Assembly (NCBI GenBank): GCA_963669175.1 | Contig: OY769902.1 | Coordinates: 3,520,001 to 3,584,000 of the forward strand | Direction of reading: 5' to 3' | Source: a bacterium | Lineage (GTDB): Bacteria > Electryoneota > Electryoneia > Electryoneales > Electryoneaceae | DNA: 64,000 nucleotides | Part shown: positions 5,241 to 38,958 of the stretch, piece by piece | Numbering within the stretch: position 1 is the stretch's first letter | Layout: each line of letters begins with the position of its first letter | The notes under the pieces: generated by a model | What the model was told of the DNA's origin: nothing | The model's input: only the letters and a program-made list of their open reading frames with translations | The model's database searches: none | Position numbers and translations under genes: made by a program

Positions 5241-5407
5241 GCCTTTCTTACCGCACCAGATTGATTTAGAGAGCATGTCGAATTGTGTATAGTCGTTCCC
5301 GAAAGTCTTTACTGTTTCAGGTTGGCAGCAGTAGCTTTCTGGCACTGAACATCCTTCTTGGGTAGGGTCGATTCTCCCCAATTGCACTCTTTCGAAAATT
5401 ATTATTA

Positions 5408-5615
5408 TTAGCAGGCTTTAGCCTGCTCCTCTTAGCCCCCGGCTTTAGCCGGGGGCTAAGAGGCCAACAAGGGTTTGAGCGCCCTTCAGGGTGCTTTCCT
5501 GATCCGTATTGATTCGATGAAAAAAAAGCACGCTAAAGCGCGCTCATAGCTTTTGTTATTTCCATCCACCCGGCTAAAGCCGGGTGCTAAGAGAAGCCTG
5601 CTGAAGCAGGCTAAT
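5408..5615. repeat. Six-palindrome REP/REPIN-like module (CTTTAG/CTGAAG-loop family), copy 1
   Basis: AGCAGGCTTTAGCCTGCT, CCCCCGGCTTTAGCCGGGGG, GAGCGCCCTTCAGGGTGCTT, AAGCACGCTAAAGCGCGCTC, CACCCGGCTAAAGCCGGGTG, AGCCTGCTGAAGCAGGCT; inverted copy at 38590-38795. Confidence 0.85.
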
Positions 5616-5730
5616 CGCTTTCGAATCAGCAATAACTTTCGAGTTCCTATGTTAAACGACAGGCGCATCAAGTCGTGTTGGAACTGCTATCTTAGCAGTA
5701 TTCCATTTTTCCAACACAAGGAGAAGCGCC

Positions 5731-6792
5731 ATGTCGAAGAACCAAGTTATTGCAGCGGACCGTTCATTGTCTATAGGTCTGGATGTTGATTCGCAGACTT
5801 CTTTCGCCGTTGTGCTCGACACCCAGACTGGTGAAGTGCTCTTTGAGAATCGGATCAAGCATGACTCAGCCGCCTGGGAACGCTTCTTTGCCCGTTTTCC
5901 CAACTGCCGCATGTGGGCGTGTTATGAAGCGGGCCTCACCGGCTTTGGCCTCTGTCGTTACCTGATCGGCCAAGGTGTTGACTGCCAGATCGCGCCGCCC
6001 AGCCAAGTTCCCAAAGGGGCGCAAGCGAAGCAGCAGAAGACCGATCATCTGGATGCCCTTACCTTGGCCCACATGTTCTGGACACCACCTCGTACCTGGG
6101 TACATGTCCCCACAGAACAGGAAGAGGCGGATCGTCAGTTGTCTCGCACCCGTGACCAGGTGATGAATGATCGCGTTCGGGTCAAAAACCGAATCAAGAG
6201 TCTGCTATTGTTTCACGGTTTACAGTCACCGTTTCCGCCGCAACGCTATTGGACAAAGGAATACCGGCGCTGGTTGCGAACGTGTGATTGTCTGGCCGCG
6301 ACACGGATAGCCATTGATGTTGCTCTCGATGAGCTGGAGGCCATTGAACAGCAACTCAAGGTGATCACCAAAGCGATCAAGGCGATGAATGCGTCCGCAA
6401 CGTATCGGGACCGTACCCAGCGCCTGCGCCAGGTGAAGGGAGTGGGCGAGTTGACCGTGAACGCCTTCGTGACCGAGATGTATCGTCCCGAACGCTTCGC
6501 ATCCGGTAAGCAAGTCGGCGCACATCTTGGCTTGACGCCGTGTGAATGGTCAAGCGCCAACACACGCCATATGGGACACATTACCCACTGGGGACCGTCC
6601 CATCTACGAAAACTATTGGTCGAAGCTGCGTGGCGTTGGGTGCAAAAAGATCCGTATGCAAAGAAGAAATACGATGCGATCCATGCCGGGAAAACACGGA
6701 AAGTGGCGATCGTCGCCATGGCACGAAAACTAGCCGTGATACTGTGGGCCATGCTGGTCAAAGAACAAGACTACAATCCTGCCTGCGTATAA
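5731..6792 (+). CDS. IS110-family DEDD recombinase/transposase
   Basis: GLDV, YEAG and KTDHLDA (RuvC-like D-E-D-D); C-terminal GVG...GLTPCEWSS...LRKLLVEAAW...AIVAMARKLA. Confidence 0.95.
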   Translation: MSKNQVIAADRSLSIGLDVDSQTSFAVVLDTQTGEVLFENRIKHDSAAWERFFARFPNCRMWACYEAGLTGFGLCRYLIGQGVDCQIAPPSQVPKGAQAKQQKTDHLDALTLAHMFWTPPRTWVHVPTEQEEADRQLSRTRDQVMNDRVRVKNRIKSLLLFHGLQSPFPPQRYWTKEYRRWLRTCDCLAATRIAIDVALDELEAIEQQLKVITKAIKAMNASATYRDRTQRLRQVKGVGELTVNAFVTEMYRPERFASGKQVGAHLGLTPCEWSSANTRHMGHITHWGPSHLRKLLVEAAWRWVQKDPYAKKKYDAIHAGKTRKVAIVAMARKLAVILWAMLVKEQDYNPACV

Positions 6793-6836
6793 CCCCAGCA
6801 CTGCTGGCAGGTAGGTAAAGCATAGATTGTGATTGA

Positions 6837-6977
6837 ATCGTCCGATGCCATTGGGAACACGCGACCCTGGTAGTTATTCTGTTGCTTGACAACGATTCGA
6901 GTTTAGGGCGCCGCTGTTCCGTGCGAACAAAAAACCTGTGCCACGAGCACGAATAGCAGAACGGCACATGGGACGAT
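6837..6977 (+). ncRNA. Predicted bridge/seek RNA of the IS110 element
   Basis: Closing stem ATCGTCCgATG/CATgGGACGAT encloses two internal loops; guides TAGTTATTCT (6871-6880) and TTCGAG (6896-6901) match the target flanks. Confidence 0.75.
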
Positions 6978-7026
6978 ACAAAGGCTCTTTACACCCTTGA
7001 CTGTTTACATAGCGGAATAACTATAT

Positions 7027-8490
7027 CTACAGGATATACCGCGACAGATCGTCATCCTCGACCAGGTCGGATAGTGTCTCCTGTACCATCGCCTTCGTGA
7101 CTTCAATCTTCTTGATCCGCTTATTTGGAATCTTGAACAGCCATTCATCCAGCAGTCTTGTCATTACGGTATGCAACCTGCGGGCGCCGATGTTCTCGGT
7201 ACGATCATTAACCGTGGCAGCGAAACGTGCGATTTCACGAATTGCGGCCTTATCGAAAGTCAGCTCAACATTTTCCGCAGAGATCAGCGCTGTATACTGC
7301 TTCACCAGTGAATTGCGAGGTTGAGTCAGGATCTTTACAAAATCCTTTTCGTCCAATGGGTCCAGTTCAACCCGAATGGGGAAACGTCCCTGCAATTCCG
7401 GGATCAGATCAGAAGGCCGCGCCACATGAAATGCTCCTGCCGCAACGAACAGGACATGATCAGAATTCACCGGACCGTATTTTGTGGTTACCCGTGTGCC
7501 TTCAACGACAGGAAGAATATCACGCTGAACCCCTTCCCGGCTCACATCAGGCCCGTTACCCGGCTCAACCGCTGCGATCTTATCTATTTCATCCAGAAAG
7601 ACGATACCGACCTGTTCTGCCCTGTCAATCGCTTCTGCAATAATGGCGTCCATATCCAGCAAGCGGTCAATCTCTTCACCGAGGAGCAGGCTACGGGCTT
7701 CGTCAATCGTGACTTTACGCTTCTTCCGTTTTTGCGGCATCATTCCGCCGAACAGCTCCTGCAGGTTGATTCCCATCTCTTCAATCCCGATAGGACCAAT
7801 CACCTGCATCATACCACCGGTTTTCTCCGGAACACGCAATTCGACAGTAAATTTTTCCAGCTTGCCGCTACGCAGACGTTCACGCATTTTTTCACGTGAA
7901 CGTGCATATCGTTCAGACGCTATCGCAGCCTTTTCTGCTTCTATGCCCTCATCAATCTCATCATCTTCTTCGTCATCATCATCATCACCGTTCTCTTCAA
8001 CCTGCTGCGCGATTCCACTGAGCAGGTCATTCAGGTTTTTCGGGCTGGAAGATTTTGATGATGAAGGTGGCGGCAGCAAGAGATCAAGCAGACGCTCCTC
8101 AACCTTCAATTCAGCAATTTCGCTGACTTCTTCGGTTCGTTCCGAACGCACCATCGCAACCGCAGCGTCAACCAGATCACGAATAATGCCTTCAACATCC
8201 TTTCCGACATAGCCGACTTCGGTAAACTTGCTGGCTTCAACCTTGACAAAAGGCGCTCCGGCCAGTTTCGCCAGGCGACGGGCAATTTCAGTCTTGCCAA
8301 CGCCAGTCGGCCCCATCATGAGGATGTTGTTGGGCAGGATTTCATCGCGAATCGGATCTTCTACCTGTTGACGGCGCCAACGATTCCGTAGAGCAATCGC
8401 AACCGCACGTTTCGCTTCATCCTGACCAATGATGTATTCATCCAGTTCTTTTACGATCTGGCGAGGTGTGTACTCAAAAAGGGATTTCAC
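7027..8490 (-). CDS. hslU: ATP-dependent protease ATPase subunit HslU
   Basis: TPRQIVKELDEYIIGQ, GPTGVGKT, KFTEVGYVG, DEIDKI, ELQGRFPIRVEL, C-terminal DLSRYIL. Confidence 0.97.
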   Translation of the reverse strand: MKSLFEYTPRQIVKELDEYIIGQDEAKRAVAIALRNRWRRQQVEDPIRDEILPNNILMMGPTGVGKTEIARRLAKLAGAPFVKVEASKFTEVGYVGKDVEGIIRDLVDAAVAMVRSERTEEVSEIAELKVEERLLDLLLPPPSSSKSSSPKNLNDLLSGIAQQVEENGDDDDDEEDDEIDEGIEAEKAAIASERYARSREKMRERLRSGKLEKFTVELRVPEKTGGMMQVIGPIGIEEMGINLQELFGGMMPQKRKKRKVTIDEARSLLLGEEIDRLLDMDAIIAEAIDRAEQVGIVFLDEIDKIAAVEPGNGPDVSREGVQRDILPVVEGTRVTTKYGPVNSDHVLFVAAGAFHVARPSDLIPELQGRFPIRVELDPLDEKDFVKILTQPRNSLVKQYTALISAENVELTFDKAAIREIARFAATVNDRTENIGARRLHTVMTRLLDEWLFKIPNKRIKKIEVTKAMVQETLSDLVEDDDLSRYIL

Positions 8491-38345: not shown

Positions 38346-38589
38346 GCAGACCCTCCTCCCAAAAGCAGTGTATCTAATGAATAATCTTTATCGTGTAGCA
38401 AATTCTTATATCCCTGCCATTTTTTCAAGGGGTGTTTACAAAATCGTGTAAAAACCGGAGTAACGGGTAGAACATTATGCAGAAAACCGTTGATCTCTCG
38501 AAATACTATTCGATTAACGTCAAGTTAGGCTCACACTTATCGTGCTAACTATAATGGTTCCCGAAAGTATTTGCTGATTCAAAAATTAT

Positions 38590-38795
38590 CAGCCTGCTTC
38601 AGCAGGCTCTTCTTAGCACCCGGCTTCAGCCGGGGTGTAAAAGTGATGATAATCATTCTGAGCGCGCTTTAGCGTGCTTGCCTGTTACAATTCCTGGGTC
38701 CGGAAAGCACCCTGAAGGGCGCTCACCATTTCTTTATAACCATGAACACCCCGGCTGAAGCCGGGTGCTAAAAAGAGCAGGCTAAAGCCTGCTAA
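38590..38795. repeat. Six-palindrome REP/REPIN-like module, copy 2 (inverted relative to 5408-5615)
   Basis: Same six palindromes in reverse order with different spacers; flank homology extends to 38550. Confidence 0.85.
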
Positions 38796-38958
38796 AACTA
38801 CCAGATAGCAGATTGTAAACAATTACAGTCCAGTAAAGCCTCCATTTAGGAGGAGTATCACTATGACAAGTATTCGAACAACAGAAATCCTACAACCAGT
38901 TTGAAACAGCATGAATTTTCGAGAAACCCTATAATCTTCTGGATTCTATGGTGTGAGC

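Follow-up and report, generated by a model that had tools for sequence, protein, structure and literature searches.

The IS1111 group of insertion sequences (ISs) offers the closest described counterparts of the locus considered here. For ISEc11, ISPa11 and ISKpn4, a seekRNA or bridge RNA is described as being encoded 3' of the transposase gene (Siddiquee 2024, PMC11187229; Durrant 2024, PMC11208160), and the inverted repeats of the group are given as usually 11-13 bp, with terminal extensions of 7 and 3 (PMC11187229). [quoted passage not shown] With respect to repeated targets, IS1111 of Coxiella burnetii is described to insert into the GTAG REP that is located within QMITE2, a MITE (PMC5896051).

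The DNA analyzed here, a stretch of 64,000 nucleotides referred to as the window, lies in a bacterial genome of one contig (5.447 Mb, 50% G+C). Two copies of a repeat, R2, are located within the window, one interrupted by an IS and the other carrying at its end the site under study (38550..38580, minus strand), hereafter the flagged site. We consider, with a probability of about 0.8, that the flagged site is the intact end of the second R2 copy, that it is empty for its poor guide match, and that the IS is RNA-guided. The element family, the copy number, the flanks, the loop sequence, the flank covariation and the occupancy gradient are established. In the mechanism proposed around them, the sister copy of the repeat (5288-5643/7016-7025) would have been interrupted 10 bp from its end by the IS1111-type IS, the targets would be chosen by an RNA from the 223-nt 3' non-coding end of the IS, and recombination would take place at a 2-nt core. 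Owing to a shared terminal motif the IS would land mostly in repeat ends, 7/12 in a second repeat, R1, and the sites would be filled in order of guide match, leaving a 10/15 site with mismatches at positions 4 and 6, such as the flagged one, unusable.

Based on a DEDD transposase, a long 3' non-coding end and subterminal inverted repeats, the insert at 5644-7015 is classified into the IS1111 group of the IS110 family. The body of the IS (5644..7013, plus strand) is 1370 bp in length, or 1372 bp with one core. The transposase gene of DEDD type (5731..6792, plus strand; 353 aa) gave Pfam matches to PF01548 (DEDD_Tnp_IS110; 5e-18, 65.7 bits with a cut-off of 29) and PF02371 (Transposase_20; 8e-20, 71.5 bits with a cut-off of 21.3), for a RuvC-like N-terminal DEDD domain and a C-terminal Tnp domain, respectively, and its translation shows the motifs GLDVD, YEAG, KTDHLDA and GLTP..WSS, which we take to be the catalytic-residue motifs. 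Among PDB entries it matched the IS621 and ISCro4 transposases (E about 3e-9) in the C-terminal part only, and it is thus only distantly similar to the solved relatives. The non-coding DNA amounts to 223 nt (6793-7015) 3' of the gene versus 87 nt (5644-5730) on the 5' side. The left subterminal inverted repeat CTATGTTAAAC (5647..5657, plus strand) pairs, with one extra base, with the right repeat GTTTACATAG (7003..7012, plus strand); these repeats of 10-11 bp leave 3 nt beyond them at either end of the IS, unlike the extensions of 7 and 3 in the described group. No long target duplication was identified, and a 2-nt core is present on both sides of the IS. The element resembles ISEc11, ISPa11 and ISKpn4 in its DEDD transposase, long 3' non-coding end, subterminal inverted repeats and site-specific target.

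A total of 12 copies of the IS were identified in the genome, all 1372 bp in length and 99.2-100% identical, with 15 variable positions and with invariant putative guide regions. In the public run X1, the depth of the IS contig was 287 versus 25-28 for the flanks, which fits about 10-12 copies. Another two transposase genes of the IS110 family, distantly related to this one (26% identity), are located at G000:C1:1259236-1260207 and 344375-345346. In addition, a wetland metatranscriptome (X4) yielded two contigs of low depth that matched the transposase gene (window 5914-6254) at 95-99%, hinting weakly at transcription of a close relative somewhere.

In the 3' non-coding end, the target-binding stem-loop of a bridge/seek-type RNA is predicted at 6861..6911 (plus strand), in which closing stems lead through an internal loop of 7+7 nt to an inner hairpin. 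The right-target guide UAGUUAUUCU (6871..6880, plus strand) is complementary to AG plus AATAACTA, and the left-target guide AUUCGAG (6895..6901, plus strand) is of the same sense as the left target and core (ATTCG plus AG). In the folds, the two guide stretches oppose each other across one internal loop with stems on both sides, and the loop specifies the target ATTCG-AG-AATAACTA. An internal RNA loop, of which two sides match the target halves on opposite strands, is also the arrangement in ISEc11, ISPa11 and ISKpn4. The pairing logic is the same as that of IS621, including the flanking 2-nt core (AG here corresponds to CT on the other strand), but differs from IS621, of which the RNA is located 5' of the gene, in that the RNA lies 3' of the gene and the longer guide stands on the 5' side of the loop, pairing with the target half that is downstream in the orientation of the transposase. 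The fold energies were no better than those of shuffled sequences (z -0.07 to -0.78 for the RNA of the window), and hence the fold alone proves nothing.

The comparison with relatives is more informative. A search of metagenome contigs for related loci by two-protein alignment gave none, and a search of genome contigs with the single transposase protein gave 3 distant loci. Four relatives within the same phylum, with transposases 38-49% identical, carry the same IS ends (TTCCTAT.. and ..ATAGCAG) and also keep the AG core and the sequence ACCCYG ahead of the loop. Taking the bases after the conserved ACCCYG as the guide stretch in these 5 lineages, the right guide matched its own core and right flank at 9, 8, 7, 9 and 8 of 9 positions (the IS of the window, L005, L001, L019 and L018, respectively), a score that is not fully blind as the guide stretches were found via complementarity to the flanks. 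Non-cognate pairs of guide and flank matched at 3-6 of 9, and the cognate pair gave the maximum in 5/5 lineages. Covariation of the left guide was weak (7, 5, 7, 4 and 5 on the diagonal versus up to 7 off the diagonal). The closing stem differs in a compensatory manner among the 5 lineages. RNAalifold on a MAFFT alignment of the 5 target loops detected compensatory changes in 3/13 pairs, with the variable loops misaligned, and single folds and anchored comparisons were used in place of this consensus. A second loop contains a candidate donor guide, AAUAGCAG (6952..6959, plus strand), which is identical to the right IS end plus core, and this identity is conserved in the 5 lineages; a partner donor guide for the left IS end was not found by eye in the same lineages. 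From these comparisons we infer that the 3' RNA is made and guides the recombinase. The insert had been described in the first-pass annotation as an RNA-guided IS110-type element, and the domains, the ends and the covarying loop all agree with this description, narrowing it to the IS1111 group.

Alternatively, the repeat end could be read by the transposase protein itself (through, for example, CTAT or TCG), as in classical transposases, and not by the RNA. The sequence CTAT at right-target positions 6-9 in 12/12 occupied sites, together with the fact that the loop offers no Watson-Crick partner for position 9, is what such reading by protein would lead one to expect. We regard it as very unlikely, however, for relatives with transposases 48% identical are inserted in unrelated flanks that fit their own loops (5/5 cognate pairs), and guidance by RNA is described as established for the family (PMC11208160, PMC11187229).

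The 12 copies of the IS are distributed unevenly with respect to the repeats. The left flank is of a repeat family in 10/12 copies: in 7/12 it is the end of R1, which is free of palindromes, and in 3/12 it is the flank of a six-palindrome module, GAATCAGCAATA(A/G)CTTTCG. The remaining 2/12 are located in unique DNA. The left flanks end with (T/A)TCG-AG in 10/12 copies, and the right flank is AAYARCTAT in 11/12 copies and AATTTCTAT once, with unrelated sequence beyond. Since a flank of the AAYARCTAT type followed by unrelated sequence is found at every copy, the IS is placed 10 bp inside the repeat end. Weaker occupied sites are ATCAG-AG-AATAACTA and CTTCG-GG-AATTTCTA, at 11/15. BLAST similarity among the copies runs beyond the IS ends, by 5 bp on the left and about 10 bp on the right, as would be expected if the ends had been set wrongly, the shared flanks belonged to the IS and the apparent target likeness were IS sequence. 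This explanation is the least credible of those considered, because the joined motif is present without interruption at dozens of IS-free repeat ends and because copies of an IS at least 99% identical are followed by different right flanks (AATAAC, AACAAC, AACAGC and AATTTC).

The proposal in the first-pass annotation that the RNA is programmed against a multicopy repeat flank is therefore retained in part. Ends of multicopy repeats are indeed targeted (10/12 copies), but it is not the palindrome module itself that is aimed at, as 3/12 copies are found there and 7/12 in R1. Moreover, the usual flank of the module, TTTCG-GG-AACnnnTA, is a poor guide match, and only three rare variant flanks were entered; the guide is thus not programmed against the typical module flank. 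The target is better described, from the flanks, as a motif that several repeat families have in common at their ends. In aiming at multicopy non-autonomous repeats, with occupied and empty copies side by side, the IS resembles the IS1111 of Coxiella, but the target there is the palindrome itself, while here it is a terminal motif located 10 bp from the repeat end, outside the palindromes, and common to repeat families with and without palindromes. IS4321 and IS5075 of the IS1111 family are reportedly aimed at the terminal inverted repeats of transposons. The element described here similarly targets other mobile elements at their inverted-repeat ends, but these are the ends of chromosomal repeats of about 300-380 bp and not of large autonomous plasmid transposons.

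The second, uninterrupted copy of R2 (38550..38933) is composed of a six-palindrome REPIN-like core (about 38581-38800) between inverted terminal motifs (38550-38565, minus strand; 38918-38933, plus strand). Its other terminus, TTTCG-AG-AAACCCTA (38918..38933, plus strand), is also empty, with a guide match of 11/15. The larger part of the first copy (5288..5643), with palindrome arms at 5407-5453/5569-5615 and 5469-5497/5525-5553, is interrupted by the IS at 10 bp short of the repeat end, and the final 10 bp, the right target AATAACTATA, is displaced by the IS to 7016..7025 (plus strand). The far terminus of this copy, TTTCG-GG-AACGACTA (5288..5303, minus strand), is empty with a guide match of 11/15. 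The ends of R2 at 5300-5318 and 5623-5641 are 79% complementary, and the inverted terminal motifs are of the form ...TTTCG-GG-AACnnCTATA; the terminal motif was detected in 24/53 module ends on side A and 18/47 on side B. The IS and the interrupted repeat adjoin the stop codon of a 487-aa open reading frame (window 7027-8490, minus strand), which ends one base past the last base of the repeat and presumably codes for the protease ATPase HslU.

The reverse complement of 38550-38580, GAATCAGCAAATACTTTCGGGAACCATTATA, aligned without gaps to the rebuilt pre-insertion site (5623-5643 plus 7016-7025) with 25/31 identical positions, as had been noted earlier, the mismatches being at alignment positions 11, 12, 20, 24, 25 and 27. 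The equivalent placement of both sites beside the six-palindrome module was likewise reproduced, the stretch GAATCAGCA beginning 10 nt past the outer palindrome GCCTGCTGAAGCAGGC in both copies. The empty terminal stretch reads ...GAATCAGCAAATAC-TTTCG-GG-AACCATTA-TA and matches the guide at 10/15 positions (left target 4/5, core 1/2, right target 5/8). When 2 mismatches are allowed, the window contains TTCGRGAAYNNYTATA 8 times versus 1.9 expected, and 0/100 shuffles attained 8 occurrences; genome-wide the terminal motif is present on 24/53 module ends on the side of the flagged site. Given this excess and this frequency, the likeness between the flagged and the rebuilt sites is read as homology within a repeat family, chance being excluded.

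[quoted passage not shown] The count is correct, but two of the four carry little information. The mismatch at position 3 (C for T) is common to 8/12 occupied sites and is hence non-discriminating, and that in the core probably arose artificially, from the use of AG of the left junction instead of GG of the right junction (7014-7015) when the site was rebuilt. With GG as the pre-insertion core, the likeness to the flagged site would increase to 26/31. The discriminating mismatches of the flagged site are those at right-target positions 4 and 6, and with these and a match of 10/15 the site is not a usable target, as judged from the comparison.

The junction cores were compared across all copies. 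The left-junction core (5642..5643 in the window, plus strand) is AG in 12/12 copies and is probably derived from the donor. At the right junction, 8 copies have AG as the core and 4 have GG, including that of the window (7014..7015, plus strand), where it is probably the core of the target itself. The GG copies are exactly the 4 with a left flank ending TTCG, and they are found on both IS haplotypes, indicating that the right-junction G was not inherited with the IS. Among the empty module flanks the core is GG in 15/22 and AG in 1. On the grounds of the two haplotypes and of these empty flanks, the pre-insertion site of the copy in the window was probably ...CTTTCG-GG-AATAACTATA, and the core AG given to it in the first-pass annotation is replaced by GG as the likelier one. 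These junctions suggest that the left junction retains the core of the donor and the right junction that of the target. In the frame of the RNA the core would read CT or CC, and both junctions could be accounted for, on the four events, by top-strand exchange 3' of the core, the position at which IS621 cuts. In a genome of the same genus (G001), with flanks about 72% identical, mostly IS ends at contig ends were found, the interior of the IS being absent. Right ends of a very similar IS are located there at L024, L025, L027 and L030, three at contig ends and that of L025 embedded in unrelated sequence; they are followed by AG and AATTACTATA, AATTGCTATA or AATTACTAAA, which differ at position 4 from the targets here.

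The relationship between guide match and occupancy was examined by scoring every genomic 15-mer against ATTCG-AG-AATAACTA, with the IS copies and junctions masked and the occupied sites rebuilt with the right-junction core. A perfect guide target is absent from the genome. The single site of score 14 is occupied (1/1; empty, 0), followed by 4/13 at score 13 (empty, 9), 5/132 at score 12 (empty, 127), 2/1099 at score 11 (empty, 1097) and 0/7286 at score 10, the class of the flagged site, in which all 7286 sites are empty. The empty counts at scores 13 and 12 are near those from chance arithmetic (about 10 and 125, respectively). The same gradient was observed within R1, for which 87 ends were parsed from 99 anchors and 12 were left unparsed: the ratio of occupied to empty ends was 1/0 at score 14, 2/2 at 13, 3/11 at 12, 1/40 at 11 and 0/27 at 10 or below (one-sided Mann-Whitney p=1e-4 for the scores of occupied versus empty ends). 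For the module flanks, anchors of palindrome pairs were employed, because 10-mer anchors with 2 substitutions gave thousands of chance anchors. The 3 occupied module flanks scored 13, 12 and 12, the third scored separately as a tandem array lengthens this flank and the script missed it, and the 22 empty flanks scored 11 or below. The occupied flanks are thus the top 3 of 25 guide matches, with a chance of 1 in 2300. The expectation raised earlier, that occupied sites match the guide better than empty ones, therefore holds genome-wide, in R1 and in the module flanks, and no well-matching module flank is empty.

The gradient also bears on an alternative explanation, namely that the flagged site is empty by chance or for lack of time, the IS having filled only a small number of the many repeat ends equivalent to it. 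As many as 80/87 parsed R1 ends are empty, and after excision of the IS from the genome sequence the motif TCG-RG-AAYARCTAT was found at 14 sites, of which 9 are occupied and 5 empty. Sites of this motif with AATAAC or AACAAC are occupied in 6/6 cases and those with AACAGC in 3/8. With five sites of good motif empty, emptiness alone proves little for any single site. For the flagged site, however, the explanation is unlikely, as the occupancy falls from 1/1 at score 14 to 0/7286 at score 10 and the occupied module flanks are the 3 best of 25, at a chance of 1 in 2300. The former statement that this copy escaped through guide mismatches is accordingly correct in that the site, at 10/15, belongs to the class with 0/7286 occupied, but overstated, since it was never a good target and 5/14 of the best-motif sites are empty too. 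A different history, in which the site was formerly occupied and the IS was then precisely excised, draws on the description of IS110-family elements as leaving in the form of circles and restoring the target (Hiraizumi 2024, PMC11208158). The first insertion, however, would then have required a 10/15 site, a class without any occupied member, and this history is highly improbable. Under the preferred reading, emptiness for poor guide match, the target quality would fall in the order ATTCG-AG-AATAACTA > TTTCG-GG-AATAACTA > AATCG-AG-AACAACTA > AATCG-AG-AACAGCTA > AATCG-AG-AACAGCAA > TTTCG-GG-AACCATTA, the last being the flagged site. In the right target, the IS tolerates C.A at position 3 and G.U at position 5, and mismatches at positions 2, 6 and 7 were not seen in occupied sites.

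Among sites with a score of at least 12, those in repeats are occupied far more often (9 occupied, 25 empty) than those in unique DNA (1 occupied, 111 empty; Fisher p=7e-6). As many as 90/111 of the unique empty matches lie inside open frames of at least 150 aa, and the difference from the remaining 21 is reduced to p=0.07. The excess in repeats is thus largely explained by the location of unique matches inside genes, for which selection against insertions into genes is a sufficient explanation. A further recognition signal within the repeats was considered and is not needed, given p=0.07 versus the unique sites outside long open frames. The insertion pattern supports a safe haven formed by selection over a further recognition signal.

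An RNA-guided IS in repeat ends, next to a poorly matching empty paralogue, represents known behaviour of the family, and alone the finding matters little; it is useful as a worked natural example. A single genome provides about 150 near-targets that are paralogous and along which occupancy forms a clean gradient, giving position-specific hints on mismatch tolerance, and the four junction pairs with unequal cores bear on the resolution of core mismatches. Tentatively, and at somewhat less than even odds, the genome can be read as a natural record of mismatch tolerance and strand exchange for an IS1111-type bridge recombinase. As parts of this record, filling of 6/6 sites with at most 1 right-target mismatch versus 3/8 with a C.A mismatch together with a G.U wobble may reflect the tolerance, and 4/4 insertions into targets of probable GG core, with AG at the transposase-proximal and GG at the RNA-proximal junction, may reflect the exchange. 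If true, core mismatches would be resolved in one fixed direction in vivo.

The circle junction of the IS would read ...CATAGC-AG-TTCCTATG..., bringing TTGACT (6997..7002, plus strand) and TATGTT (5648-5653) into the arrangement of a -35 and a -10 element. The predicted promoter TTGACT-N17-TATGTT would form across this junction, and its halves TTGAC and TAT(G/A)(T/A)T are conserved in the relatives. Neither a circle junction nor an empty allele was seen among the contigs of 4 public runs, a kind of data unable to display them. The end of R1 gives (T/A)TGACG exactly 17 nt upstream of TATGTT of the IS in the copy L009 at G000:C1:2895447 and in the other R1-borne copies, and a hybrid -35/-10 pair could thus be present at IS copies integrated in R1.

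As to the repeats themselves, R1 is 308-309 bp in length, with imperfect terminal inverted repeats (25-27/45 alike) and without palindromes, was detected with 99 anchors, and ends ...CCCGGCAATCT...GACGGAATAAAATCG. Both R1 and the outer frame of R2 show traits of MITEs, that is, terminal inverted repeats, small size and many copies. At R1 no target-site duplication was detected beyond a possible TA, and an autonomous partner was not found among termini paired 0.6-6 kb apart in the genome; the paired ends 144247/147120, considered as such a partner, enclose an ordinary gene of 604 aa. The motif TCGAGAAYARCTATA was identified in the genome at 5 exact sites and 41 sites with one mismatch, versus about 0.04 and 1.7 expected by chance at equal base frequencies. 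A motif of the form ...TCG-RG-AAC..CTATA terminates several repeat families, with and without palindromes.

The module core relates the target repeat, and not the IS, to REP, REPIN and BIME clusters, which RAYT (Y1) transposases mobilise, in its short GC-rich hairpins in inverted sets. PF01797 (Y1_Tnp) gave 10 matches in the genome. Two RAYT-like Y1 genes, at G000:C1:1503099-1503437 and 5361261-5361596 (open frames of 151 and 164 aa), are both bordered by the palindromes GCAGGC.. and CCCGGC.., the same as in the six-palindrome modules, and from these shared palindromes the module core is judged to be of REP/REPIN type. The target motif of the IS is absent from the RAYT-flanking palindrome copies, and Rfam assigned no family to the repeats and the 3' end of the IS, with sub-threshold matches in palindromes only. 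Long variants of the module are present at G000:C1:4482585-4483365, 1663129-1663905 and 847296-848547, each with a nested element of about 430 bp placed in the loop of the CCCGGCTGAAGCCGGG hairpin, with an apparent 10-bp duplication of the hairpin. The ends of the nested element, CTGTCTCTT.CCCACATC, presumably resemble those of the IS4/Tn5 type. Between the module and the terminal motif, tandem arrays of a unit of about 19 bp (..TCGAATCAGCAATAG..) are located at G000:C1:4232931-4233120, 3016960-3017200 and about 4207959; the copy number of the unit varies, and each unit opens with TTCGA, similar to the left half of the IS target.
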